NCBI GenBank assembly: GCA_030696105.1
Contig: JAUYNJ010000001.1
Span: 66,747-130,746 of the forward strand
From: a bacterium
GTDB lineage: Bacteria; Patescibacteriota; Patescibacteriia; Patescibacteriales; UBA12465
DNA: 64,000 nucleotides
Direction: 5' to 3'
This document shows positions 9,886-21,800 of the stretch, piece after piece (within the stretch, counting starts at the first letter, position 1; each line of letters begins with the position of its first letter). The notes below the pieces were generated by a model that did no database searches, had not been told where the DNA came from, and worked only from the letters and a program-made list of their open reading frames with translations. The translations under genes and the position numbers were made by a program.

Positions 9886-9958
9886 GGGCCCTTAGCTCAT
9901 CTGGTAGAGCACCTGCTTTGCAAGCAGGGGGTGGCAGGTTCGAGTCCTGTAGGGTCCA
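9886..9958 (+). tRNA. tRNA-Ala (anticodon TGC)
   Basis: A manual cloverleaf fits: acceptor GGGCCCT/AGGGTCC with the G3:U70 identity pair, anticodon loop TTTGCAA, T-loop GGTTCGAGTCC. CCA is not encoded. Confidence 0.9.
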
Positions 9959-11447
9959 CCTTACGAGATTTGGCATTAGCCAAGTCTCTTTTTGTTTCTA
10001 ATATTGGCGATAATTTCGGAGTTTGAAATGTGTAAAAATTAAAAGAGGGCTTTTCTTTAAAAATCGAACTCTGAACTTTGAGTTTGGTGGCATAATCGGC
10101 CTTTTCATAAAAGTCCGGCAGATCACACATCAAATCAAAAACCTTATCAATATTCTTTTTAACGTCAAAACCATCGTCTTTACAATTCAAGAGTCTTTCC
10201 TGTTTATCGGATAGCATAATTTTTACTTTATCCATTTCTTCCCTAAAATCTTCATCGTCTAATAACTCCTTTTTCTTCATCTCAATTAATTTGTCTTTTT
10301 CCGCTTTCAGATTTTCCAATTGCGACTTGAGCAAACCGAAATTGCTATGTATCTCATTCTTTCTCTCATCATAAACCTCGATAATCGCTTTTTTAACGGC
10401 CTTGGCCATATAAGGCTGAAAACTAATCTTTTTTAAACCGAGTGAAAAATTATCTTCTACTTCTTTTTTAGTAATTGATTTTAACTGACCGCATTTTTTG
10501 TTATAACATTTATAATAGGGGTATTTAATACCCATTTTGCCGGTTGAAAAACAAGCGGTTAGCGGACTGCCACAATGCGGACAAACTACAAAATGCCTTA
10601 GAGGAAAACTTTCGTTAACTCGACCTAAAGAAATACAGTCGCCCTTATCGGCATTTCTAAATAATTTCTGACACTGCCAAAAAATTCGCTCATCAATAAA
10701 TTTTTCATGACTGCCGGCATATTCTTGACCCTTAACCGTCATAATCCCGATATAGAATTTTTCTCGGAGTAATTCGTGGAGCGTTTGCAAAGTTAACTCC
10801 CGGCCTTTATGCGTTCTAAACCCTTTATCATTTAACATCTTTCTGACTTGTTCAATTTGATATAAGCCGGTCGCAAATCGCTCAAAAGCTAATTTGATTA
10901 AAGGCATACGAACCTTATCAAAGATTATCATCGCTTTATTTTGAGCGTCTCGAGCGTTTAAATAGCCAAAGGGGGCTTTAAAACACCAAACGCCCTGTTT
11001 TATCCGTTCGTGCATACAAGAGGAGATTCTCTCACTCCTAACATCATTATCAAACTGGGCGACCGAGGCAACGATCGTCCCGACTAATCGACCGCTCGGC
11101 GTCTCATCAACCGTTTCCGTCGTCGATATAAACTTAATTTTAAGTTTATAGAGCGACGCCAGAATGCCAGTATAGTCATTAACATTACGAGACAAGCGGT
11201 CAATTTTATAAACAATCACACAATCAAGATTCTTGGTATTCTTTACACAGTATTTTAATAATTCTTTTAAGCCCGGCCGTTCAATAGTTTTTGCCGATAC
11301 GCCGTCATCGTGAAATAGTTCGACAATTTCAATATCATGCTTGAGAGCGTATTCCAAGCAAGCGTTTTTCTGTTGTTCTAAACTAACACCGGATTGAGCC
11401 TGATCTTCAGTCGAAACCCGGTAATAGATAATTCCTTTTTTAGTCAT
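9897..11447 (-). CDS. large serine recombinase (integrase) 1
   Basis: The product starts MTKKGIIYYRVSTEDQ (catalytic Ser region), then YKIDRLSRN, a recombinase domain, a Cys-rich zinc ribbon (CPHCGSPL...YYKCYNKKC) and a coiled coil. Start set at ATG 11447. The last ~20 codons run antisense through tRNA-Ala. Confidence 0.85.
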   Translation of the reverse strand: MTKKGIIYYRVSTEDQAQSGVSLEQQKNACLEYALKHDIEIVELFHDDGVSAKTIERPGLKELLKYCVKNTKNLDCVIVYKIDRLSRNVNDYTGILASLYKLKIKFISTTETVDETPSGRLVGTIVASVAQFDNDVRSERISSCMHERIKQGVWCFKAPFGYLNARDAQNKAMIIFDKVRMPLIKLAFERFATGLYQIEQVRKMLNDKGFRTHKGRELTLQTLHELLREKFYIGIMTVKGQEYAGSHEKFIDERIFWQCQKLFRNADKGDCISLGRVNESFPLRHFVVCPHCGSPLTACFSTGKMGIKYPYYKCYNKKCGQLKSITKKEVEDNFSLGLKKISFQPYMAKAVKKAIIEVYDERKNEIHSNFGLLKSQLENLKAEKDKLIEMKKKELLDDEDFREEMDKVKIMLSDKQERLLNCKDDGFDVKKNIDKVFDLMCDLPDFYEKADYATKLKVQSSIFKEKPSFNFYTFQTPKLSPILETKRDLANAKSRKVDPTGLEPATPCLQSRCSTR

Positions 11448-11637
11448 AAATTTAAAATTAATAAAAAGAGAGCAGTAAACTGTTGGACACAATTAAGCAA
11501 ATACTCAATTGAAACAGTCACTGCTCTCTTTATCTCAAAACGACATCTCGCCGTCATTATGACTTGAGTAAATATTTGCTATATTAATTGTGTCCATTAA
11601 GGATATTAGCATAAATTCTCTTTTTTACAAGATTAAG

Positions 11638-11790
11638 CTACATTAAGGTCGGATTAATATGGCGTTTATAATACTCAAAAGCCAAATAAGCTAATTGATA
11701 CAAATCACGGCTAACTTCCATTAATTGAGCGTCGGTATATTCAGAGGATTTCGGGCCGACCAACTCTTTCATTTTTTCTAGTGTTAACAT
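11638..11790 (-). CDS. small hypothetical protein (50 aa), paralog of 11816-11965
   Basis: My own translation gives MLTLEKMKELVGPKSSEYTDAQLMEVSRDLYQLAYLAFEYYKRHINPTLM. It falls below the ORF-track size cutoff and shares its pattern with the adjacent small ORF. Confidence 0.45.
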   Translation of the reverse strand: MLTLEKMKELVGPKSSEYTDAQLMEVSRDLYQLAYLAFEYYKRHINPTLM

Positions 11791-11815
11791 ATATTTTATT
11801 GATTATTTTTTATAT

Positions 11816-11965
11816 TTATTTAAATAAGTTAGGATTTTGTTGATGGATATCAAAGGCGAGATGAGCAAAGGCGTAAATATCGTGCCTTATTTCTTCAAGC
11901 TCTTCTTCGGAAAACCGCTTAGCACGACTTCCCAGCAGTTTTCGCAGAGCCTCTAAGCTCATCAT
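11816..11965 (-). CDS. small hypothetical protein (49 aa), paralog of 11638-11790
   Basis: My own translation gives MMSLEALRKLLGSRAKRFSEEELEEIRHDIYAFAHLAFDIHQQNPNLFK. It shares the L..L.G...S/T.E.L.E..D.Y.A.LAF pattern with its neighbour. Confidence 0.45.
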   Translation of the reverse strand: MMSLEALRKLLGSRAKRFSEEELEEIRHDIYAFAHLAFDIHQQNPNLFK

Positions 11966-12020
11966 TCAATTCCGAAAAATGTCTGCAGAACATTTTAATT
12001 AGTGAATTAAAATGTCTTTG

Positions 12021-12875
12021 TTAAAAGACAATATCATCTATATTCAGTTCTTTGTTTTTTGTTGTTTTTTCTGATTTATTATTTTTAATAATTTTATCTA
12101 ATTCTTCGTTGTTTATTTCGTTTATTTTATAAATGGTTTCTTTTATTTGACCTAAGCGGTCGCTGTAGAATTCCCGTTCTTTAATCAGATCTAAAGAATC
12201 GGGGCTAAAGAAGTCTAAGAAATTGTCCACCTCGTCTGGGTAGTCGATTATTTCCGGTTGATTAAGATTTTTTGAATAGAAAAATTTTCGTTTCTTGAAA
12301 TATCTCGGATCGAACATTTCCTTGCTTAAATATTTCGAGATATAAATACCGATATTCTTGGCGTTGTTAATAGGCCTAAAATTAATAAAACCATTTTTCC
12401 AGTATTTGTCGGCAAACCACCGTTCATATTCTTTTCGCTTATCACCAGTTTCAAATTCCGGCAGAGGGTAATTAGAGACTAAATGATAATGGACTCTTTT
12501 CGACTGCGGCTGAAATTCGGGAACGGCTAAATATTGAAAATCATTTTGGCCATAACTGATCCGCTTAATAAAGCGGTCAAAATATTTATTGGCTGTTTTT
12601 AAATCCAATATTTCGTCTTTGAACGTCAGCGTCAAAAAAGTTTTGAGTTGCGGATTAGAATTAATTAGACGAGTTATTTTCTGTCTGGCTCGCTTAACAT
12701 TATCTTCTCTAATTTTAATCTGCTCCGATTCTAAGCGAATATGCTTAAATTCAGGGCGATGAATTTTCCGATACTGTGGCCAACCGACCCAATATGATTT
12801 CTCATACTCAAATATCTCAATAATATTTCCAGACTTGATGATTTTTTTCTTGACCTCGTAAGGTAAACTATCCAT
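12021..12875 (-). CDS. HUH-superfamily rolling-circle replication initiator (Rep)-like protein
   Basis: Three RCR Rep motifs occur in the canonical order: FLTLTF (motif I), HYHLV (HUH, motif II) and YISKYLSKE (catalytic Tyr, motif III). Confidence 0.7.
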   Translation of the reverse strand: MDSLPYEVKKKIIKSGNIIEIFEYEKSYWVGWPQYRKIHRPEFKHIRLESEQIKIREDNVKRARQKITRLINSNPQLKTFLTLTFKDEILDLKTANKYFDRFIKRISYGQNDFQYLAVPEFQPQSKRVHYHLVSNYPLPEFETGDKRKEYERWFADKYWKNGFINFRPINNAKNIGIYISKYLSKEMFDPRYFKKRKFFYSKNLNQPEIIDYPDEVDNFLDFFSPDSLDLIKEREFYSDRLGQIKETIYKINEINNEELDKIIKNNKSEKTTKNKELNIDDIVF

Positions 12876-13023
12876 GCGCTTTTTATTATTGTCTTAGATT
12901 AATAACTTGTTTTTTCGACTCGTGTAATATGAGTGAATAATCAAGTTATTTATTAAGTTTTTAAAGTGCTGGCTCGGGCGTTAGCAGAACGCCCTCGCTT
13001 TTGTTTCTTTTATGCCTTATCCG

Positions 13024-13090
13024 GCCATTCCGTTTTTCGGCCCGGCTCCCCCACGGGGGATCCGCCGGGTCCGAAAAAACGGAAAATGGC
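13024..13090. repeat. nested hairpin/cruciform element, copy 1 (core GGCTCCCCCACGGGGGATCCGCC)
   Basis: Arms gccattccgtttttcggcccggc and gccgggtccgaaaaaacggaaaatggc pair around the inner palindrome TCCCCC-ac-GGGGGA. The core recurs at 20618-20641. Confidence 0.8.
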
Positions 13091-13183
13091 GAGAAAAGGG
13101 GCGATATAAACAAAAAACCATAAGCTTAGTGTTTATGGTCTTATGATAACGAATTGAGTTGTAGCAATATATACCCGCTAAAA

Positions 13184-13858
13184 TTATTTTGCTTGTCCGG
13201 TCAATTTCTTTGAATAATCGAGAAGTCTTTTAACAATTTTAGCAATATCTTGATAGCCGAGAATTTTGTCCGGGTATTTCTCGTTAATTATTGAGGCTAT
13301 TTCCTTATCTTTCTTGCCGTTTTGGCGTAATTGATATATTTCCAAGTCTCGACCAACATTAACTCGTGGCGAGGCTTTTAGGGGCTTAGAATCGGACAAT
13401 CTAACGACCGCCTGTCTTATTTCATTCCAGTTTTTTTGCAGTTCGGTTATGGTAGTTTCCGGGTTTAAACGGATAACCGTAAATTTTTCTTTGGGGTTAG
13501 ATGGATTTTCGATATTAAAAGGATAAAGCTCCTCAGACAAGCCGAAATAACTAATAATATCTCTCTGTTCAATAAAATCTTTTAGTGAAGTCTGATAAGC
13601 CGGCGACAAATGATATTTTAATCTCAAATCGGAAACGGCTTTATTGTAGTTATTCGTAAATTGATGAATATCGTCTAAACTTTTTATTTTGATTGTTGTT
13701 TTTATAGATTCAGACGAATTAATATGATCTTCCATTCCTTCGCCAGCAACATATAATTTAACTATCGGAACATTTTCTCGAATATATTGGATGTCGGCTC
13801 TAAAATTCTCATTAGTAATATAAATTATATAGAGATTTTGATAAAAATTAGAGGACAT
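13184..13858 (-). CDS. hypothetical protein with a possible C-terminal HTH, third gene of the ATPase/RloB operon
   Basis: There is an 8-nt gap after the RloB-like gene on the same strand. The C-terminus RDLEIYQLRQNGKKDKEIASIINEKY is HTH-like. A hairpin plus T-run terminator follows at 13112-13139 on the minus strand. Confidence 0.4.
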   Translation of the reverse strand: MSSNFYQNLYIIYITNENFRADIQYIRENVPIVKLYVAGEGMEDHINSSESIKTTIKIKSLDDIHQFTNNYNKAVSDLRLKYHLSPAYQTSLKDFIEQRDIISYFGLSEELYPFNIENPSNPKEKFTVIRLNPETTITELQKNWNEIRQAVVRLSDSKPLKASPRVNVGRDLEIYQLRQNGKKDKEIASIINEKYPDKILGYQDIAKIVKRLLDYSKKLTGQAK

Positions 13859-13865
13859 AAAAATT

Positions 13866-14510
13866 TTATTTTTTACTATCCCTAATTAATCTATTAATCT
13901 CTTCTACCAAAAAATGAATACTAGTTGACGGATTCCCTTTGGCACTCAAACTATTCTGCCAATTAATTTTTTCATAATCGGGCACTATGTCTTTAGCATT
14001 TTTAATTGCTTGTTCTTGGAATGGTAGTAATATTTGAAAAATTTCTTGATTTTTTTGAAATTTACCTAACTTATTTTTCTTAAAGGCCTCAATAATTTTC
14101 TTTTCAATATCTTCGCCCCTGCAAATTTGACAATTCGGTTTTTCAAAATGAAGCAAAATCCAAAGTTCGAAACATTCATTGACGTAAGCAATCTTAATAT
14201 TATTATTCACGGCATTTTTAATCGCCGCTAAAAGCTTCTCGCCATCATTCTTATAAAAATCATCAACATCAAAAATACACCACACCTGATCGCCGTCGTC
14301 TTCGGAAACTTTAACTTTTTTCCACTCTACAATTTTTTCTAATAATTCTTGCGGAGTCCAGTAAAGTTTTTTATCTGGCATCAATAAAGGAGTTTTCAAA
14401 TAATTCTTAAATTCTTGAAAATACTCTATCTCTGCCCGCATTGTATGCGACCAAACAAAAATTTTTGGGTGAGCTTCACGATGTTTAGTTTTACCTCTAT
14501 ATTGCGCCAT
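13866..14510 (-). CDS. RloB-like (Toprim-related) protein, AbiLii-like
   Basis: KIFVWSHTMRAEIEYF aligns with the RloB N-terminal (I/V)xCEGxxTExxYF block, though the CEG is degenerate. VWCIFDVDDF matches the DxD block. The gene abuts the upstream ATPase gene. Confidence 0.6.
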   Translation of the reverse strand: MAQYRGKTKHREAHPKIFVWSHTMRAEIEYFQEFKNYLKTPLLMPDKKLYWTPQELLEKIVEWKKVKVSEDDGDQVWCIFDVDDFYKNDGEKLLAAIKNAVNNNIKIAYVNECFELWILLHFEKPNCQICRGEDIEKKIIEAFKKNKLGKFQKNQEIFQILLPFQEQAIKNAKDIVPDYEKINWQNSLSAKGNPSTSIHFLVEEINRLIRDSKK

Positions 14511-14511
14511 A

Positions 14512-15810
14512 TTATTTTGAAAATTTTAAATCTTCAAAATCCGAAATATATGGCAAAGCATTATACCTACCCTCTAGATATCTTTTAGCAAAATCTACAC
14601 CCTTTCTTTCAGATATATCTGATAATGAGAATAATTCAGTTGCCCCTTTTTCGTTTTTCTCTGTAAAATAAATTTGATCACGGCGAAGAAAATCCTCACT
14701 CATAAGAGATGTATCGTGGGTAGCAAAAACTAATTGAGCATTATTTGGATTCTTGTCCTTCGAATTAAAAATTGAAATTAAGTACTGACAAAGTATCGGA
14801 TGGAGGCTTGCATCAATTTCATCAATAAATAAAATTTTTCCATTATCCAGTGTATCAATTAATGGGGCGGATAAAGCGAACATATGCTGAGTACCATTCG
14901 ATTCTTCATTAAAGAAATCAAACGGCTCACTCTTTAATTCTTCTTCATTATTGCCAAATTTTTTATGTAAAAACCTAATGCTACGCTCGGCTATTTTGGA
15001 ATCTTCTTTAAAGAATAACTCTTTAAATTTATCCGGCATATTCTGAATTTGCTTGGCGGAAACCATTTTTTCACTCGCCTCAATATTCATAACACCAAAA
15101 TCAGCTTTAACAATAAAATCTTTCATTTTTTTAGCCATACTGGGGTTATTCAAGAATTGACCGAATGAATAATTCAAAGTATCACCACTATTTGCATCCA
15201 GTATTAAATTTGTATTCTTCACAAATTCAACAATTTTTTTGGATATCGGTTGGTTATTACTAGAAAGGACTGACAGAAACAAAACTCGCTCGCCAGTATT
15301 ATTTTTTAAAGCCGCTGATGCCTCTTGAAAATAATTCTTATTACTTTCAATTTTTTGACCATCCCTTTCAAACAAGGTTTTCTTGCCCTTTTCTTGCTTT
15401 AACCATTCCGTGCATATTTTTTTCTTGTCCATTTCAAACCCATAACTAAAAACTTCGCCATCAAGCAAAAAGGTCATCTCAAAAAACGTGGGCTTATTTT
15501 CAGTTTCTGAACTTAACTTAAAATATTCATTAGGCAAATCAACTGCGACATTACTTCGAAGTAATGACTCTAAAACCATCATACGAAAAACAAAAAAGGA
15601 TTTAAGAATATTACTCTTGCCCGATGCATTTGGGCCATAAATAGCCACCGATTTTAACAATGATTTTTTACCACTTTCAAAAACTGCATTTGATTTCATT
15701 GTTTCGTCGCTTGTAGCACATAGATCAAGTATAATCTCATCTTTAATTGAACGAAAATTTTTAACCTTGAAAGTTAACAACATATTTTTATATATTGAAT
15801 TATTATTCAC
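14512..15810 (-). CDS. AAA_21/ABC-type P-loop ATPase, AbiLi-like defence ATPase
   Basis: Walker A (GPNASGKSN), Walker B (ILFIDEIDASLHP) and C-terminal ATHDTSLM are present. The gene is paired with the RloB-like gene. Confidence 0.7.
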   Translation of the reverse strand: MNNNSIYKNMLLTFKVKNFRSIKDEIILDLCATSDETMKSNAVFESGKKSLLKSVAIYGPNASGKSNILKSFFVFRMMVLESLLRSNVAVDLPNEYFKLSSETENKPTFFEMTFLLDGEVFSYGFEMDKKKICTEWLKQEKGKKTLFERDGQKIESNKNYFQEASAALKNNTGERVLFLSVLSSNNQPISKKIVEFVKNTNLILDANSGDTLNYSFGQFLNNPSMAKKMKDFIVKADFGVMNIEASEKMVSAKQIQNMPDKFKELFFKEDSKIAERSIRFLHKKFGNNEEELKSEPFDFFNEESNGTQHMFALSAPLIDTLDNGKILFIDEIDASLHPILCQYLISIFNSKDKNPNNAQLVFATHDTSLMSEDFLRRDQIYFTEKNEKGATELFSLSDISERKGVDFAKRYLEGRYNALPYISDFEDLKFSK

Positions 15811-15816
15811 AATTCA

Positions 15817-15845
15817 ATATTAGCAAACTATTTTCCAAAAGTCAA
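15817..15845 (-). promoter_or_regulatory. sigma70-like promoter for the ATPase operon (TTGACT-17-TAATAT), with a perfect 15-bp palindrome just upstream at 15853-15867
   Basis: On the minus strand, the -35 is at 15845-15840 and the -10 at 15822-15817. The palindrome TGACAAATATTGTCA lies directly upstream. Confidence 0.5.
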
Positions 15846-15975
15846 GACTTTATGACAAATATTGTCAAAAAAGAGATAAAAATGGAAATATTTACCTAAT
15901 TTAGTCATTTTTATTGAAATATTACCACAATGATTTCTTTCTAAATAGAGTCTAATTATAAAAAATAATAAAAAT

Positions 15976-17121
15976 TTAGTCCTTAATCTTTCTTGTTATT
16001 ATCACACCATTATCGATTGGCAATGTATAAGAGGTAACTCTTCTATCACTTTGAGAATTTGGCAATTTTGTGCCTAATACTTTATCAAGATAATCTTTCA
16101 TCATATGTCCGTAGTCAAAAACATTATCTGCTATAATAAAGCCGCCATTTTTTAACAAAGGCATAAATAACTCAAAATATTTTCCATAATTTTCTTTATC
16201 AGCGTCTAAAAAAATTAAATCTAATTTTTTTATTTTCCCTGACTTTAATATTTCCATAGCATCACCCTCCAACAAATCTATATTATTGAGTTTTGCTTTT
16301 TTAAAATTACTTTTAGCTAACTTTATTTTTGGTTTTAATTTTTCAATAGTATTTACTCTTCCTTTATTATAACGAGCTCCCATAGCCAAATACAGAGTAG
16401 AATAACCGGCCGAAGTGCCAATTTCTAATATATTTTTACTCTTTGTCGCAACGGCCATAAATTCTAAAAGTTCGGCGGTAGTCCTCGGCACAGACCATAA
16501 TTTAATCGTCTCACCAACAACTTTTTGTCCAAATTGTTTTTCATTGCCATTATATTTATATTCCCAATTGGTTTCTATTTTTTCAATTGATTCAGCTGTT
16601 AAAATTATACTCTTATTATCCCTTAAATTATTTATAATATTTAAGACCTGAGGATTGTATTTATAATTCAACTTCTCCAACACCTCTTTGGTGAATTCGA
16701 TTGCTTCGTTCGAGTTCCAATTCTCCATAAAAAAATCATAATAGTGCTTAAACAAAGCGATATTATTAATCTCAACTATAAACGGTTCCGGCCTCCAACC
16801 TAATTGCAATATTTTATTCTTTGTAATTACCAAGCCAACCGGAATATTAAAGTTTTTAAATTTTAATTTTAAATTGTTATTATCAGAATAAGTTTCGCCT
16901 GCTGTTATTTCTAATTTTTTATTGAAAATAGCTCGATCATCAATTTTTTTCTTAGCGAGGCTCAAATGAAATTGTTTAAAAAGTTTTTTAATTTCTGGGC
17001 TTTGATATTCATTCTGAAATGCAAAAGCATAATAAAAATCACCCGCCGTAAGTTCTTTTTCAAGCAAAGAATAATAATCAATAAACTGTTTTTTACCAGA
17101 AATGGTATTTATTGTTTTCAT
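15976..17121 (-). CDS. fusion protein: N-terminal TrmB-C-terminal-like domain plus class I SAM-dependent O-methyltransferase (family 3-like)
   Basis: OMT motifs ILEIGTSAGYSTLYLA and DLIFLDADKENY are present. The N-terminal ~140 aa is paralogous to the C-terminal ~110 aa of the upstream-encoded 593-aa protein. Confidence 0.7.
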   Translation of the reverse strand: MKTINTISGKKQFIDYYSLLEKELTAGDFYYAFAFQNEYQSPEIKKLFKQFHLSLAKKKIDDRAIFNKKLEITAGETYSDNNNLKLKFKNFNIPVGLVITKNKILQLGWRPEPFIVEINNIALFKHYYDFFMENWNSNEAIEFTKEVLEKLNYKYNPQVLNIINNLRDNKSIILTAESIEKIETNWEYKYNGNEKQFGQKVVGETIKLWSVPRTTAELLEFMAVATKSKNILEIGTSAGYSTLYLAMGARYNKGRVNTIEKLKPKIKLAKSNFKKAKLNNIDLLEGDAMEILKSGKIKKLDLIFLDADKENYGKYFELFMPLLKNGGFIIADNVFDYGHMMKDYLDKVLGTKLPNSQSDRRVTSYTLPIDNGVIITRKIKD

Positions 17122-17127
17122 AGATGT

Positions 17128-18909
17128 TTATTTATATTTTTTATCCCAAATTTCATTAAAGTAATTTTTGTAGCTCTCAACTATTTTAATATCCTTAATT
17201 TCAAATGCCGATGGCTTTGATCCCCACAAAAGATTAATAATCCTGTCATTTAGAATGATAACACCATTTGGGATTTCTTTTTTTGTTGCTTTAATTTGGA
17301 TATTCTTATTACTACTATAGGCAAGGTTTAAGGCCGACAAAGTTTCTTGACGACAAATTGCTCTATCCTCGATTGATTTATCGGCCAACTTTTTATGAAC
17401 ATCTGATAACAAATCACGAACTGCCGGATCTAAATATTCAGAATTAAAAGCAAAAGCCGAATAAATATCTTCTTTAGTTAAACTGTTTACAATATTTTCG
17501 AATAACTTTTTAAATTCTGTCGTCCCCTCATAAATAACTTCCGCCTCCCTATAAAAAAATGGATATTTTTCACCTTTCAAAAAAACCGGAATATATTTTC
17601 CACTACTTAACAATTCGCTCTCATAATGAACAGACACTTCGCCATTATTTTTTAATACGCCCACGCCCATCCATGGTAATAAATGTGTTTTTCTTTTAAC
17701 TAAGAAAATACCGATATGACCCTCCTTGGGATGAACTGTTAAGCGGATGCCTCCCGGTACTAGTAAATTAAAGAAATCAGCTTTCTCTAAAGCGTGTTGA
17801 ACGACCATATATTCAAAAGCGCATTTTTCCGCTCTTTCGTTAATTTCTTTTTTCTTTTCCTTTTCCACATCGCTTAAATCCCAATCTTCTAAAAAGTTAA
17901 TTCTATATAAAAACTTAAATGAAGCATCTGACAAATTAATATTTTGTTTTGCTGACTGGATTATCTTTTGAACTTTTTCATTGTTAAATTTTGTAGTTTG
18001 CCATAAATTAGTCATTTCTGCCCTCGCTTCATCATAAATTGTTGAAAAGTTTTTAATCTTTTTCAACTCTTCAAGAGCGTCTTTTAAAATAATCACTTCC
18101 CCAAGATTTAGTTTCCTAACAATATCTTTCAGAGATTTAAAATATCTTTCTGCGTCTTCTTTTTCATGTAAAAAATGCCGGTAGTAAAGGTGCCCGTCAT
18201 GAAAAATGGTAAATTTTGCTCCCGGTTTATAAATTATCTTAATTTGTAAATTGATTTCATTCAACTTACAAAATGAACCGATCTCGGCTAAGTCCGCATC
18301 CCTTCTTGATGATTTCAACGGATTAGCAATTTTAAAAGGAAAGGCCGGGAGCATAAAATTTATCGGCTCTTTTTTATCAATAAAATAATTAATCTTTTTT
18401 AAAATATCTTCTTTATATTTTTGCAAATTAATTGTTTCTAAAGAACCATTTCTGTATTTAGGAGAAGTAATTATATGCAATATTTTTTCTGCTAAATCTT
18501 TGCAACCATTAAAATCTTTTTCATTAAAATAATTAATTTGAGTATTAAATGTTCTTAAAAATTTTTGGTAATCAAATTTAATAATTTCTTCTCTTTGTAA
18601 ATTTTGATAATTATAATAATTTTCTTTTATATTCTCACTTATTTTTTCATAAATTGTTCCCGTCATGTCTATTCTGGTTAAATCATAGTCCGACGGTAAA
18701 ACTACATTTTCCACTTCTTGCTCATAGCCAGCTTTATTTAATAAATTCAAAATTTCCGTTTTTTGATATTTCCTATCTCTTCTTACGCCGAATCTAATAG
18801 CCTTTAAAAGGCCTTTTTGTTCCCAAAGTCTAAGCGTATTTGGATGACAATTTAATAATTCGCTCGCCTGCTTTAGGGTTAATAATTTGGACGTTATGTC
18901 TTTTTTCAT
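17128..18909 (-). CDS. three-domain protein: MerR/excisionase-type HTH, DIT1/PvcA-family (isonitrile-synthase-like) domain, TrmB-C-terminal-like domain
   Basis: The HTH is LTLKQASELLNCHPNTLRLWEQKGLL. The PvcA-like blocks are MLPAFPFKIANPLKSSRRDADLAEIGSF...YKPGAKFTIFHDG and GGIRLTVHPKEGHIGIFL...LLPWMGVGV. The tail ends NLLWGSKPSAFEIKDIKIVESYKNYFNEIW. Confidence 0.7.
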   Translation of the reverse strand: MKKDITSKLLTLKQASELLNCHPNTLRLWEQKGLLKAIRFGVRRDRKYQKTEILNLLNKAGYEQEVENVVLPSDYDLTRIDMTGTIYEKISENIKENYYNYQNLQREEIIKFDYQKFLRTFNTQINYFNEKDFNGCKDLAEKILHIITSPKYRNGSLETINLQKYKEDILKKINYFIDKKEPINFMLPAFPFKIANPLKSSRRDADLAEIGSFCKLNEINLQIKIIYKPGAKFTIFHDGHLYYRHFLHEKEDAERYFKSLKDIVRKLNLGEVIILKDALEELKKIKNFSTIYDEARAEMTNLWQTTKFNNEKVQKIIQSAKQNINLSDASFKFLYRINFLEDWDLSDVEKEKKKEINERAEKCAFEYMVVQHALEKADFFNLLVPGGIRLTVHPKEGHIGIFLVKRKTHLLPWMGVGVLKNNGEVSVHYESELLSSGKYIPVFLKGEKYPFFYREAEVIYEGTTEFKKLFENIVNSLTKEDIYSAFAFNSEYLDPAVRDLLSDVHKKLADKSIEDRAICRQETLSALNLAYSSNKNIQIKATKKEIPNGVIILNDRIINLLWGSKPSAFEIKDIKIVESYKNYFNEIWDKKYK

Positions 18910-18943
18910 AAAAATTGATATTTACTTAACAATACATACCAAT

Positions 18944-18972
18944 AGTATACAATACTTAATAACATTTGTCAA
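18944..18972 (-). promoter_or_regulatory. near-consensus sigma70-like promoter (TTGACA-17-TATACT) for the HTH-PvcA-like/OMT operon
   Basis: On the minus strand, the -35 is at 18972-18967 and the -10 at 18949-18944, about 35 nt upstream of the start at 18909. Confidence 0.55.
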
Positions 18973-19033
18973 GAACGAGAAAAATCATTATTTAAAAACC
19001 CCGCCCAATACTTAATTTCCTCAATAATTTCGT

Positions 19034-20542
19034 CTAAAGAGTTGGAAATCCGTTTTTTAACGACCACATTAAGTCAAGACTCCCATTTTGGGGGTCTTTT
19101 GCGAATAAGGAATAAGGCTCTTTAAATTTAATATTAGTTATTTTTCCGTCTTTAACTTCAGCGTTCCAAAGTATATTTTTTATTATTTCTCTTTGTCTAT
19201 TAGGTTTAGCTTCTAAAAACTTATTTTTCATTGCCTGTTGGGCTAAAAATAAGTTTTTGACTTGTTCCAAAGTGATTTTAGCTAGTGGCTGATTTTTGTT
19301 CTCTAATGATTTTAATTCCTCATTTAATAAGTTCAGCTCGTCAGCTATCGTCTTTCGCTTGGCCTCAAAATCGTCCTTGTTAATGGCTTTATCTAATAGC
19401 AGGTTAAATAGTTCAGCTTGTCTGTCCTCTCTAATTTTGAGCCGTTTTGAGAGTTCGTTTTTAGTTCTAAGATATTCTTGATTCTCTGATTCCTGTTTTA
19501 ATTTATCTAGGCTCGCCTCATACATTAAATTAATCATTTCTTCGGGAAAAGTTAATCGCTCAAAAACATCAGCCAACATTTTAATAGCCTCGTCTTCTTT
19601 TAAATAACTCTTATGCTCCTCGCATTTATTTCTGCCATTAGTACAGTAATAGTAAATATGTTTGCCCCTCTTTTTACTGGCGGTATATAGACAACCACAA
19701 CGAGCGCAAACCATTAATCCCCGGAAAATAAAGTCTAAGCGATTCTTTTTAACATGCTGTTTTTTGTGCGCCATTTCTTGCGCCTCTTCAAATAGCCTTT
19801 TAGTGATTATTGGTTTATGGCTCCCTTGATACTCCTCGCCATGAGATGTCATTACCCCATAATAGAATTTATTGTTTAGCAAAGTATATATTTGCGACTT
19901 ATGGTATTTATTACCGCCCCGGCTTTTTAACCCGGACAGATATATTTTATTTGCTATTTCTTTAATCGTATAATTACCGCCGATATACATAGTAAATATT
20001 TGCTTAACATAGGGCGCTCGTTCCTTATCTACTAAAATTCCGCCCTTACCATCATTTAAATAACCAATCGGAGCGATACAAGGCCAGCCGCCTTTTTCCA
20101 GTTTAGTCCTTAATCCTCGTTTAACATTTTTACTCAAATCTAAAATATACTGGTTAGCCATTGAGCCCTCAATGTTTAGCAGTAAAACATTATCACTCGG
20201 CAAATATTGTTTATCGCTCGTCTGAATCACTTTGATTTTAGACTGCTGTAATAGCCATTGAATTTTTCCGCTGTCTATCGGATTTCTAGAGAGCCTATCT
20301 ATTTTCCAACATAATATTCCATAGCCCTCGGCTTCATTATTATTTTCTAACAGTTTAAGCATCTCTAAAAACACAGGCCGATTATTTGGCAGTTTAGCCG
20401 ATTTACTTTCCGTATATATTTTAGCAATTTCCAAACCTAAACTATGAGCCAGTTTTTTCATCTCGTTTACTTGGCTTTCCAGGGATAGTATTTGTTTGCT
20501 CTTGTCTTCACTAGACTTACGAGCATAGAGAATATATTTCAT
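19034..20542 (-). CDS. large serine recombinase (integrase) 2
   Basis: The product has MKYILYARKSSEDK, WKIDRLSRN, a recombinase domain, a zinc ribbon (CARCGCLYTA...YYYCTNGRNKC) and a coiled-coil tail. It is highly divergent from recombinase 1. Confidence 0.85.
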   Translation of the reverse strand: MKYILYARKSSEDKSKQILSLESQVNEMKKLAHSLGLEIAKIYTESKSAKLPNNRPVFLEMLKLLENNNEAEGYGILCWKIDRLSRNPIDSGKIQWLLQQSKIKVIQTSDKQYLPSDNVLLLNIEGSMANQYILDLSKNVKRGLRTKLEKGGWPCIAPIGYLNDGKGGILVDKERAPYVKQIFTMYIGGNYTIKEIANKIYLSGLKSRGGNKYHKSQIYTLLNNKFYYGVMTSHGEEYQGSHKPIITKRLFEEAQEMAHKKQHVKKNRLDFIFRGLMVCARCGCLYTASKKRGKHIYYYCTNGRNKCEEHKSYLKEDEAIKMLADVFERLTFPEEMINLMYEASLDKLKQESENQEYLRTKNELSKRLKIREDRQAELFNLLLDKAINKDDFEAKRKTIADELNLLNEELKSLENKNQPLAKITLEQVKNLFLAQQAMKNKFLEAKPNRQREIIKNILWNAEVKDGKITNIKFKEPYSLFAKDPQNGSLDLMWSLKNGFPTL

Positions 20543-20603
20543 ATTGGTTAAATGATTAGCTATTCAGATTCCTGTCTAATTATAAGTTCTTTTAAACAAG
20601 GAT

Positions 20604-20657
20604 AACTTTTTCTTTTCGGCTCCCCCTCCGGGGGATCCGCCGAAAAGAAAAAAAGTT
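20604..20657. repeat. nested hairpin/cruciform element, copy 2 (core GGCTCCCCCTCCGGGGGATCCGCC)
   Basis: Arms aactttttcttttcggc and gccgaaaagaaaaaaagtt pair around the TCCCCC..GGGGGA palindrome. The core matches copy 1, but the outer arms differ and remain self-complementary. Confidence 0.8.
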
Positions 20658-20720
20658 TATTCCTTGGTTAATAGAGAAATCAGATAAAAAGAAAGAATCT
20701 TAATACTACTATTATATGGA

Positions 20721-20910
20721 AACGACTTGCACCATCTTGCATGCAAGACTGAATCCCATATTTTATTGTATTTATTGGCTTTTTTATTGGTTTAGCACCA
20801 TTACCTTATTAGTATAGAGAATCGGTCTTGTACTATCTTGTATACAAGATATAAATTAAAGTAATCCTGTTTTTATTGGTCTTTTTATGCTATTTTGTAC
20901 CATATTAGGC
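20721..20910. repeat. two diverged ~100-bp tandem units, each with a 12-bp palindrome (CTTGCATGCAAG / CTTGTATACAAG) and TTGyACyAT motifs; iteron- or operator-like
   Basis: By manual alignment, cgacttgcaccatcttgcatgcaagac matches cggtcttgtactatcttgtatacaagat. Each unit also has ttattggc(t)ttttttat and a terminal g(c/t)accat. The palindromes are at 20736-20747 and 20837-20848. Confidence 0.65.
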
Positions 20911-20915
20911 CGGGC

Positions 20916-20944
20916 TTGACATTAATTGACAAAAATGCTATAAT
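20916..20944 (+). promoter_or_regulatory. perfect consensus sigma70-type promoter TTGACA-17-TATAAT
   Basis: The -35 is at 20916-20921 and the -10 at 20939-20944. It reads into a ~115-nt leader with a 12-bp inverted repeat (20983-20994 / 21025-21036), then the ORF at 21065. Confidence 0.6.
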
Positions 20945-21064
20945 TTAGTCATTAAAATGGTTCGTTTACAAATAAGGTTAAATTTGATTAATTACCAAGT
21001 TCGTCTGAAATTAGGTGAATTTAGTAATTAATCAAATAATTATTAATCTTAAAAAAAGGAAGTC

Positions 21065-21592
21065 ATGAAAAAAGGAGTTATTATTATTTCGTTTGTTATC
21101 GCAATTCTTTGCGGTTCTATGGTGTATTTTTATCTTTCAACAAATAAAAATACGGAAATTAAAAAAAATCCAGAAAAGGTTGTTCTTACAAAAAATGTTG
21201 GTATGGAAAATCCTATTGTTATAAAATATTCTGAATACAATGGCCAGCCAATTGAAATTGTGTATGATTCAATCCAGAAAAGAATAAGCCTTCGTGTTCA
21301 CGAAGATTACGTATGCGGTGGCGATAAAGAGTTGCAGGTATTAAAAACAAAAGTATCCGAAATCTGTACCAGTGAAAAAATTATTACCATAGGTAATAGC
21401 GGGTATAGTTTATGCTTTTTGGGCGGGTTTCCAGAATGGAGCCCATATCACTCCCTTGGACCTAATTATTCTAACGCCTGTTTGCTTTTCTCTAGCAAAA
21501 CAACCCTAAAAAACAAAGTTTTTTATATTACAGGCGAAAATAATAAAAGAGGGTATTATCCTTATGCCGATTCAGTGGGAACGACATTATAG
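21065..21592 (+). CDS. membrane-anchored or secreted hypothetical protein (island cargo)
   Basis: N-terminal hydrophobic helix MKKGVIIISFVIAILCGSMVYFYL, an AGGAAG ribosome-binding site upstream, and AT-rich composition like the island. Confidence 0.5.
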   Translation: MKKGVIIISFVIAILCGSMVYFYLSTNKNTEIKKNPEKVVLTKNVGMENPIVIKYSEYNGQPIEIVYDSIQKRISLRVHEDYVCGGDKELQVLKTKVSEICTSEKIITIGNSGYSLCFLGGFPEWSPYHSLGPNYSNACLLFSSKTTLKNKVFYITGENNKRGYYPYADSVGTTL

Positions 21593-21605
21593 TTTAAAAG
21601 AGCTA

Positions 21606-21636
21606 AAGGAAGTCTATCAACGACTTCCTTTTTTAT
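21606..21636 (+). terminator. intrinsic terminator
   Basis: Stem AGGAAGTC / GACTTCCT followed by a T-run. Confidence 0.6.
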
Positions 21637-21800
21637 TTGTCTAAAGCTATAATATCAACATATCTATTATTAACGAGCCATGTTCCTAAATCGTACCAGG
21701 CTCCCCACGTAATAAAAATAACTCCACCTGCGTGGAGTTGTTTGTTAACAGCATTAGATTCAGCCTTTTAAAAAAGCCGTAATAATTTTACGGCTTAAAA

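Follow-up and report, generated by a model that had tools for sequence, protein, structure and literature searches.

Serine integrases such as those of phiC31, Bxb1, A118 and SPbeta act on protein-coding targets, and their phage attachment site (attP) lies outside the open reading frame (ORF) of the integrase. Satellites such as RS1 and TLC of Vibrio cholerae consist of an inovirus-type replication initiator (Rep) and origin without virion genes, are packaged by a helper, form tandem arrays and integrate at dif via the host XerCD recombinases. The subject of this work is an island at the 3′ end of a tRNA-Ala(tgc) gene in a 64,000-nucleotide stretch of DNA (hereafter the window, meaning the whole stretch analyzed) from a bacterium of the Patescibacteriota (UBA12465; assembly GCA_030696105.1, contig JAUYNJ010000001.1, positions 66,747 to 130,746 of the forward strand). 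With good confidence, the island is taken to consist of two tandem integrative elements, A and B, each driven by its own large serine recombinase (LSR; SR1 and SR2, respectively) whose gene is split upon integration, A being derived from inoviruses. The recombinases resemble those of phiC31, Bxb1, A118 and SPbeta in domain architecture, in the use of short att sites without long homology and in the small common core. What is unusual, and extends throughout the family, is the targeting of tRNA 3′ ends, the position of attP within the recombinase ORF with a detachable exon encoding the tail, and a descent from filamentous phages in which cargo has replaced virion genes. A differs from RS1 and TLC in integrating by its own serine recombinase at a tRNA gene, and dependence of A on a helper may be hypothesised.

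A 2020 survey listed 14 candidates among 297 elements for serine integrases acting at t(m)RNA genes, a type of target that, according to its authors, had not been reported before (PMC7192596). Archaeal SSV-type (‘suicidal’) tyrosine integrases have the recombination site in the integrase ORF, target tRNA genes and have their gene split (Badel et al. 2020, PMC7253208); by contrast, the enzymes described here are serine recombinases of bacteria in which the last ~25–32 codons are exchanged and the domains stay intact, whereas the SSV-type gene is cut into inactive halves. In mycobacteriophage BPs, which uses a tyrosine integrase, and in its relatives, attP lies within the repressor gene and integration changes the C-terminus of the protein, so that its form depends on the integration state (PMC4557955); here the affected gene is that of the serine recombinase itself, and a regulatory consequence is hypothesised. 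Tycheposons of Prochlorococcus form tandem arrays in which older elements are displaced inward by new arrivals, and a minority of them, 27 of 937, rely on a large serine recombinase (Hackl et al., 10.1101/2020.12.28.424599). The island has a similar layout, with the integrase at the tRNA-proximal end, cargo and a tandem array. However, tycheposons belong to another phylum and mostly carry tyrosine recombinases, partial tRNA repeats and primase, helicase or polymerase genes, whereas A carries a serine enzyme and an HUH Rep; a split recombinase gene is not reported for them. Inoviruses associated with the candidate phyla radiation (CPR) share with A the PF23343 Rep, a unidirectional gene order and GC-rich hairpins upstream of Rep (Roux et al. 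2019, PMC6813254), and in that paper no description was found of tRNA 3′-end targeting with attP inside the recombinase ORF. The literature search, incomplete and no proof of absence, gave no serine integrase with attP in its own ORF and no such CPR element family.

The frame of the island is given by the following features:

9886–9960, plus strand: tRNA-Ala(tgc), the integration target, found with ARAGORN; gene intact, with a G3:U70 pair and the attL core CCAC at 9956–9959
9965–9998, plus strand: terminator-like hairpin with T-run from the terminator scan, 5 nt past the tRNA and inside the SR1 coding region of the opposite strand
9960–19067, all genes on the minus strand: element A, 9.1 kb, bounded by CCAC at 9956–9959 and 19064–19067
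19068–21708, minus strand: element B (probable limits), 2.64 kb, small and without Rep, bounded by CCAC at 19064–19067 and 21705–21708
21709–21750, plus strand: displaced native region downstream of tRNA-Ala (B′ arm), with an A-rich stretch, the hairpin AACTCCAC-CTGC-GTGGAGTT and a T-rich tail

A preliminary description of this stretch had suggested, from two very different serine recombinases, that a composite island at tRNA-Ala holds two tandem or nested elements, each with one of these enzymes. The tandem composite was borne out and a nested arrangement is excluded. The reported shift in composition was likewise seen: GC content is 0.41 to the left of the tRNA, 0.32 in 9961–19067, 0.335 in 19068–21708 and 0.43 to the right of 21709, and the HD-hydrolase gene (0.44) is again at host level, as had been proposed. 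At the left junction, the tRNA 3′ end GGTCCAC is followed directly by element A sequence. In the junction alignment, the 4-bp CCAC is the sole sequence common to attL, the A/B junction and attR. A long direct repeat of the tRNA 3′ end, which the preliminary description had likewise failed to find at the right side, was not found at the island ends, and the right limit it had placed at about 21760 lies within 52 bp of the boundary at 21708. Ends that share only CCAC fit serine-recombinase chemistry, which explains the missing long repeat.

The hairpin at 9965–9998 folds as RNA with −15.9 kcal/mol (z = −6.3), and all but one loop base is invariant among elements. It is a probable replacement terminator for tRNA-Ala, a role that probably accounts for its near-invariance, and it is also part of the P′ arm of the att site. 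At the other end of the island, CCAC 21705–21708 is directly followed by GTAATAAAAATAAC and the hairpin of 21709–21750 (RNA fold z = −5.7), and an identical architecture of GACCAC followed by an A-rich stretch and terminator was read in the related loci L003, L007, L018, L020 and L021. Integration regenerates the tRNA fully, and the native terminator is moved to the far end of the island. The empty attB is predicted by reconstruction as CCTGTAGGGTCCAC joined to GTAATAAAAATAACTCCACC, and the junction of the tRNA with B after loss of A as CCTGTAGGGTCCAC joined to ATTAAGTCAAGACTCCC.

Homologs of the element proteins were almost all from metagenome-assembled genomes (MAGs) of Patescibacteria. In the related genomes L003–L007, SR1, two small ORFs, Rep and the core gene p224 are located beside the same M23-peptidase gene and tRNA-Ala as in the window, and each of them has other content in the interval from this core to DNA polymerase I. 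Core proteins of these genomes are 82–95% identical to those of the window, and flanking host proteins only 43–63%. Likewise, in L018, L020, L021 and L022 the core shows 85–93% nucleotide identity versus 65–70% for the flanks. Beyond different cargo, a 75-bp block corresponding to 18994–19067 recurs with 82–99% identity in L003, L007, L009, L018, L020, L021 and L022 (96–99% in the last four), and in the five junctions read (L003, L007, L018, L020 and L021) it ends at GACCAC. Core, block and GACCAC end beyond variable cargo delimit element A as 9960–19067. High identity that includes intergenic DNA, combined with modular cargo, indicates horizontal spread rather than purifying selection on an inherited region. 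The preliminary description had named relatives with the same gene order as evidence that would speak against a mobile island; what was found is a shared core with different cargo and an element identity far above host identity. By contrast, its internal boundary at about 13100 was not sustained, since in the comparison with eight related genomes everything from SR1 to the right end forms one 9.1-kb element. The cargo, which it had assigned to recombinase 2, therefore travels with recombinase 1 and Rep, and the second element measures only 2.6 kb. Among the records retrieved, the MAGs with L022–L024, L027, L028 and many more are titled ‘uncultured Gammaproteobacteria bacterium’ and look mislabelled; the flanks of L022–L024 are syntenic with the window, as in MAGs titled Patescibacteria.

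The two parts of the SR1 gene are located at opposite ends of element A:

9897–11447, minus strand: SR1, large serine recombinase in its integrated form, 516 aa (Pfam Resolvase PF00239, 2.8e-35; Recombinase PF07508; Zn_ribbon_recom PF13408)
18969–19067, minus strand: SR1 tail exon and right end of A, continuing the SR1 ORF in the circular form as VVVKKRISNSLDEIIEEIKYWAGFLNNDFSRS followed by a stop

SR1 has the resolvase catalytic domain with the catalytic serine, and its motif YRVS is invariant in the family alignment. Its gene had been described as abutting the tRNA; it does, and it goes further, as the frame runs 64 nt into the antisense strand of tRNA-Ala. The last 21 codons lie inside the tRNA gene, and the residues past ...AKSRK, read from the antisense tRNA, are VDPTGLEPATPCLQSRCSTR. 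When the right end of A is joined to the left end at CCAC, the SR1 frame is extended by 26–32 codons before a stop in seven of seven copies (the window, L003, L007, L018, L020, L021 and L022), with the consensus VV[VF]KK[RK]ISNSLDEIIE[ED]IK[YQ]W[AT][GE]FL.. for the tail of the circular form; the full-length SR1 is predicted to have 528 aa. Variable columns of the right-end block are distributed as 4/2/12 over codon positions 1/2/3, a coding signature in a frame that is present only in the circle. The attP of A lies inside the recombinase reading frame, its predicted junction being GGAAATCCGTTTTTTAACGACCAC joined to CTTACGAGATTTGGCATTAGCC.

The split design is also evident in the family at large. 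Antisense-tRNA peptides, e.g. ..VVPRGIEPLLPG and ..VAPTGFEPV, form the C-terminus of about 100 of the 120 best SR1 homologs; their GIEP or GFEP corresponds to the tRNA T-arm read on the antisense strand. Four proteins (P0128, P0161, P0174 and P0194) carry contiguous tails, e.g. KISKRFNEIIGEIKRWARFL, homologous to the predicted SR1 tail. The contiguous gene of locus L011 and that of its integrated relative in L034, 84% identical, diverge exactly at the 3′ end of tRNA-Glu, and the detached tail exon is found upstream on the same strand, at a distance of 6.6 kb (range 5–8 kb). With a profile of the tail peptide, 34 matches were obtained in 26 of the 79 loci fetched, every one of them on the strand of the recombinase gene and none on the other; three of the 34 lie within intact genes, and several loci have two or three exons. 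Multiple tail exons in one locus read as traces of successive insertions. Such loci, with two or three copies on the recombinase strand upstream of one recombinase gene, are L043 (114–3276), L048 (170–3967), L027 (2368–6463), L036 (184–2793) and L041 (2285–4106); these apparent footprints would be analogous to the partial tRNA copies of tyrosine-integrase islands.

An AlphaFold2 (AF2) model of P0128 reached a mean predicted local distance difference test score (pLDDT) of 82, with residues 1–470 (catalytic, recombinase, zinc-ribbon and coiled-coil parts) confident and helices 344–391 and 397–416 following the zinc ribbon. The crossover maps to a low-confidence linker (residues 491–502) and the tail forms a terminal helix (503–522), so that integration would keep the enzymatic core and swap the terminal helix only. 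The exchanged portion corresponds to the last ~6% of the recombinase ORF.

In species-representative genomes, the SR1 family comprises 498 loci, nearly all in Patescibacteria, of which the 79 mentioned were fetched. SR1 at an identity of at least 75% was found in 9 species-representative genomes, in all of them at tRNA-Ala(tgc). An antisense tRNA is present at the 3′ end of the recombinase gene in 66 of the 79 fetched loci, mostly of tRNA-Glu or tRNA-Ala, and a clade with 40–60% identity uses mostly tRNA-Glu and occasionally tRNA-Arg, -Lys, -Asn or -Leu. Some genomes contain two or three family members at different tRNAs (Ala, Glu), namely L020 and L030 (OW818634.1), L018 and L041, and L039, L046 and L054.

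Replication and origin-like features of element A occupy the region next to SR1:

11638–11790, minus strand: s50, small ORF, paralog of s49
11816–11965, minus strand: s49, small ORF, paralog of s50
12021–12875, minus strand: HUH rolling-circle Rep of the inovirus/plasmid type (PF23343, 4.6e-18, above cutoff; phrog_3419)
12899–12957, minus strand: candidate double-strand origin, an inverted repeat holding ATAACTTGATTAT (Rep strand) with the motif CTTG/AT
13024–13090: large GC-rich hairpin 1 (DNA fold z = −4.8), with apex GGCTCCCCCACGGGGGATCCGCC at 13044–13066
13184–13858, minus strand: p224, core gene with a 224-aa ORF, confined to the clade of A-type elements

The HUH Rep with FLTLTF, HYHLV and YISKYLSKE named in the preliminary description was recovered with these three motifs, which include the HUH signature and the catalytic tyrosine (motifs I–III). 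The label of its PHROG match is ‘rolling circle DNA replication initiation’, and distant relatives are found in small rolling-circle plasmids and among replication proteins of microviruses and inoviruses. An exact-protein look-up gave no recorded match for Rep or for the membrane protein of B. The paralogy reported for the two small ORFs was confirmed (s49 and s50 are 32% identical, E = 9e-13), and as judged from their sequences both are hydrophilic helical peptides with no hydrophobic span. A homolog of s50 is likewise located between Rep and recombinase in the inovirus-like provirus L099, and s50 may be a candidate accessory or directionality factor.

The region upstream of Rep is 87% identical across four elements. 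In it, the inverted repeat 12899–12957 (fold z = −4.3) is nearly invariant in the four. Its 13-mer ATAACTTGATTAT lies 71 nt upstream of Rep and recurs 27 nt upstream of Rep in the free circular contig L097; CTTGAT is present 25–72 nt upstream of Rep in several diverged lineages. CTTG/AT is the nick motif of the phiX174/pC194 group of Reps, and the candidate nick point within element A is located between ATAACTTG and ATTAT. Fifteen loci have the apex of hairpin 1, among them elements of the tRNA-Glu clade with a Rep identity of only ~40%, and wherever the Rep start was mapped the apex lies 110–190 nt upstream on the same relative strand; in L007 the outer stem is kept and the apex is different, and no match to the apex was obtained in viral contigs. 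Hairpin 1 is a candidate minus-strand origin or packaging signal. Between the nick-motif repeat and the large hairpin, a small GC-rich hairpin at 12972–13000 (fold z = −1.6, not significant) is present in L003 and L009 and absent from L007.

Two circular 5.5-kb contigs, L097 and L098, with terminal overlaps of 30 and 121 nt, encode a Zot-type morphogenesis ATPase, several small ORFs and Reps 46–48% identical to that of A. Being circular and carrying Zot and small ORFs, they are regarded as filamentous-phage-like genomes. In the integrated L064 and the IMG/VR provirus L099, the order is Zot, Rep, small ORF, recombinase and tRNA; these Zot-bearing prophages share the Rep–small ORF–recombinase module of A, whereas the free circles L097 and L098 carry no recombinase. 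Searches by tblastn with the Zot sequences of L097 and L098 gave no match in the window or in A-clade loci, and there was no Zot match among the element ORFs. Nor were coat-like small membrane proteins or a large adsorption protein found, and no large unannotated ORF is conserved with the core. Compared with inoviruses, A is devoid of the Zot/pI ATPase and coat-like proteins and has instead p224 and defence or enzyme cargo; it was rejected as an inovirus prophage for want of Zot and coat genes. Sharing the Rep–recombinase module without Zot, A keeps the replication–integration module of integrative CPR inoviruses, the virion genes being replaced by p224 and cargo. Like the satellites of filamentous phages, it combines a Rep and a candidate origin with the absence of virion genes.

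Element B comprises, in addition to its recombinase, a hairpin, repeats and one gene on the plus strand:

19034–20542, minus strand: SR2, second large serine recombinase (PF00239, 3.7e-20; PF07508; PF13408; motif YARKSSED)
20593–20670: hairpin 2 (DNA fold z = −7.0), whose apex is that of hairpin 1 except for one extra loop base
20712–20913: two imperfect direct units of ~101 bp, ~62% identical, each with a 12-bp palindrome, CTTGCATGCAAG and CTTGTATACAAG
20916–20944, plus strand: promoter with 12/12 consensus positions and a TG extension, upstream of a 175-aa ORF
21065–21592, plus strand: 175-aa protein with a hydrophobic N-terminus, followed by a terminator at 21605–21631
21633–21708, minus strand: predicted SR2 tail exon and right end of B; the circular SR2 would end ...DLMW followed by GAWYDLGTWLVNNRYVDIIALDK and a stop

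SR2 is 32% identical to SR1. Its last nine codons, SLKNGFPTL, are read from the right-end block of A beyond CCAC in another frame, which means that the SR2 gene, too, has been separated from its true end. Within the SR2 family, most tails are read from the antisense T-arm in another frame (..M[LW]G.RDSNP..) and the others are free (..MLACLREVRTCIL.. or ..LREVRT..); when A is removed in silico, SR2 reads ..DLMWTLQDSNLPPP.., like P0252. The rebuilt SR2 tail is in register with the free family tails of P0258, P0246 and P0250, sharing M, G, W, D and T with P0258, and the host-type tRNA terminator follows directly after the predicted tail exon. The predicted junction of the B circle is ..GGCTCCCCAC joined to ATTAAGTCAAG.., and the attP of B is predicted as CGTACCAGGCTCCCCAC joined to ATTAAGTCAAGACTCCC. 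An alternative right end at 21724, after ..AACTCCAC and before C, was rejected in favour of 21708, since it falls in the stem of the host terminator and would give SR2 a tail that agrees poorly with those of the family. Element B thus probably corresponds to 19068–21708, with the HD gene outside the island. B is probably the older insertion, displaced inward by the later entry of A at the regenerated tRNA end, an order suggested by the conservation of the tRNA half among targets of A and the variation of the downstream half between genomes.

The hairpin and its second copy noted in the preliminary description both proved to be structured, folding much better than shuffled sequence, and the outer stem of hairpin 2 (T-run/A-run) resembles those of tRNA-Glu-clade elements. 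B may plausibly depend on a Rep supplied in trans. Repeats described as iteron-like are present, although as two imperfect units they are weaker than true iterons. The consensus promoter reported before a membrane protein was confirmed, and the 175-aa protein has no family match in the libraries searched, PADLOC, PHROGs and NCBIfam among them. By eye, the left end of B (19068–19100, AAGACTCCCATTTTGGGGGTCTTTTGCG) shows a hairpin and T-run right after the position where it would abut the tRNA, which suggests that B, like A, provides the tRNA with a new terminator. The window is identical to contigs of one sequencing run. Logan contigs of that run have ends at ~20642, inside hairpin 2, and at ~21627, at the terminator past the membrane-protein gene, and the 1-kb stretch between these ends is absent from both retrieved contigs, maybe owing to an assembly effect of the hairpin or to low coverage; the contig ends were rejected as evidence of excision since they do not match att sites.

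Combined, these observations fit a scheme in which each element would have been inserted by its own LSR via a crossover within CCAC, a core made up of the end of the tRNA acceptor stem, the discriminator and the base after it. In both families attP lies within the 3′ end of the recombinase gene. The circle thus encodes the full-length enzyme, and integration moves a terminal exon of ~25–32 codons away to the opposite end of the element and gives the protein antisense-tRNA residues instead. A would be derived from integrative inovirus-like phages of CPR bacteria, keeping the Rep–small ORF–recombinase module and the origin region. If A is still active, the excised circle would presumably be replicated by Rep in rolling-circle mode and be transferred between cells by helper-phage packaging or DNA uptake. 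B would be a minimal relative lacking Rep, with a recombinase of a different clade and the same hairpin apex. A bolder joint proposal, which we hold only tentatively and consider doubtful as a whole, is that the exchange of the terminal helix acts as a sensor of the integration state and that A and B are virion-less satellites of CPR filamentous phages. Under this proposal, the full-length and tRNA-tailed enzymes would not be alike in their activity, stability or partner binding, so that directionality control would be built into where the att site lies; an inovirus-type Rep would replicate the satellites, the conserved hairpin would serve in packaging, and B would borrow the Rep of A or of a helper.

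Several observations weigh against two split-gene elements of this kind. The relatives were compared in the manner proposed by the preliminary description for defining the empty tRNA-Ala site, yet no empty site was retrieved and attB is a reconstruction. Every A-clade copy found is integrated, and the exact attP_A pattern GACCACNTTACGAGATTTGG gave no match in the viral collection and one in JGI metagenomes (L010); the latter was rejected as a circular junction, being a chance match in an unrelated ORF. No recombination directionality factor was identified, and s49, s50 and p224, candidates by position only, have no family match. In the P0128 model the tail helix has a pLDDT of 37–57, so that its contacts cannot be stated. 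CTTGAT is missing upstream of many Reps of the tRNA-Glu clade, and the nick site and the role of the hairpin are assigned from motif resemblance and conservation alone. For the right end of B, the evidence consists of the 4-bp core, the terminator signature and a short motif match, in register but not scorable by BLAST.

Other readings of the island were weighed against these data. A division into a 3-kb element with integrase and Rep (9959–13100) and an 8.7-kb element with cargo and integrase (13100–21760) using recombinase 2 would account for the presence of two recombinases and for the junction-like appearance of the hairpin region at ~13.0–13.1 kb. That region is, however, the conserved Rep-upstream origin region; p224, just right of 13100, accompanies the conserved core in all related elements, nucleotide identity stays high across 13100 (9878–15902 in L021 and 9886–13860 in L020), and the right-end block 18994–19067, located beyond the cargo, encodes the SR1 tail, leaving this division with next to no probability. 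An old, vertically inherited and immobilised island whose core is conserved by purifying selection is highly improbable. It is true that all retrieved relatives have the core at this tRNA-Ala and next to this M23-peptidase gene, and that neither a circle nor an empty site came to light. But the loci were fetched via element genes, so occupancy is biased; the identity of 85–93% includes intergenic DNA while surrounding genes show 65–70%, cargo varies by genome, further family members occupy other tRNAs in the same genomes, and the tail exon keeps a coding signature meaningful only in the circle. The same signature bears on the proposal that the right-end block owes its conservation solely to recombinase binding, as the P arm of attP, its in-frame reading being incidental. 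The arms of serine-integrase attP sites, with ~25 bp per half-site, must be conserved, and the block does end at the crossover. But conservation extends over ~75 bp, the frame is open for 26–32 codons in all seven copies, substitutions concentrate at third positions (4/2/12), and homologous tails are contiguous in intact genes (P0128, L051, L070), conserved as protein where the DNA has diverged, so that an incidental frame appears very unlikely. Both roles are compatible, and the P arm is an addition to the coding role rather than an alternative.

Could A be a decaying filamentous prophage that has lost its virion genes, rather than a functional cargo element or satellite? Its inovirus-type Rep, the Rep–small ORF–recombinase module as in L064 and L099 and the lack of Zot and coat genes would agree with decay. 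The same virion-less design, however, with intact SR1, Rep, p224, att ends and tail exon, is found in at least eight genomes and spreads horizontally; p224 is conserved and clade-specific and cargo is exchanged as modules. Decay would not retain all of this, and the explanation is unlikely. Likewise unlikely, though less so, is that B is a remnant of an older insertion or that the true right end of the island is elsewhere, e.g. beyond the HD gene. B lacks a Rep and consists of just two genes, short motifs define its right end, and in L022 both B and the HD gene are missing between A and the Na/Ca exchanger. Against this, SR2 is full length with its three domains, CCAC, the displaced tRNA terminator and an open tail exon that bears the family motif all meet at 21705–21750, and GC is at host level (0.44) in the HD gene. 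Two tandem LSR-driven elements with split recombinase genes thus remain the preferred explanation.

This large family of serine recombinases, with its 498 loci, departs from the usual picture, in which targets are protein-coding and the integrase gene does not include attP. By its detached tail exon, the far end of an element can be recognised where searches for direct repeats miss it, and past insertions leave traces that can be counted. Predicted attB/attP pairs are a resource for a phylum with almost no genetic tools, and defence and metabolic genes appear to move between CPR species on derivatives of filamentous phages. If the tail swap does alter the behaviour of the enzyme, it would constitute a new control of recombination direction.

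The core gene p224 is 84–92% identical among relatives and 67% in the more distant L007, and has only 33 homologs, each at least 56% identical. It gave no match in Pfam, PHROGs, PADLOC, NCBIfam or a PDB sequence search, and nothing with Foldseek. Its AF2 model has a pLDDT of 68 overall and 83–93 for residues 165–220, and three C-terminal helices resemble a helix-turn-helix (HTH). To the right of p224, element A carries the following cargo:

13866–14510, minus strand: AbiLii/RloB (PADLOC AbiLii, 1.5e-19; Pfam RloB)
14512–15810, minus strand: AbiLi/AAA_21 (PADLOC AbiLi, 1.2e-94; Pfam AAA_21)
15976–17121, minus strand: O-methyltransferase (Pfam)
17128–18909, minus strand: fusion of a MerR-type HTH and a PvcA-DIT1-like protein (Pfam; NCBIfam PvcA, 2.7e-24, below cutoff)

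These genes correspond to the defence-like and enzyme operons of the preliminary description, which were thereby given family assignments. The adjacent AbiLi and AbiLii genes form a predicted AbiL abortive-infection pair and, among the relatives compared, are common to L021 only. The N-terminal ~136 aa of the O-methyltransferase and the C-terminal ~128 aa of the PvcA/DIT1-like protein are a shared domain (34% identity, E = 2e-20), and the N-terminus of the latter protein is a MerR/excisionase-type HTH. An assignment of the pair to the MADS defence system was not adopted, as PADLOC gave only weak partial matches to mad1 and mad2.

Unusual neighbourhoods were observed for two of the recombinases with intact tails. 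In L016 (409–3433 of a 3.6-kb contig), P0174 is encoded directly downstream of a tyrosine-type Phage_integrase gene, an unusual pairing. In L011 (1461–6026; also in L012–L015), cargo resembling a diversity-generating retroelement, with bAvd (PF22296) and a reverse transcriptase (RVT_1) and preceded by two N_methyl/Fib_succ_major proteins, is located beside an array of Rep and recombinase genes; P0128 is encoded inside this array, and next to come are another Rep and another recombinase at tRNA-Arg.

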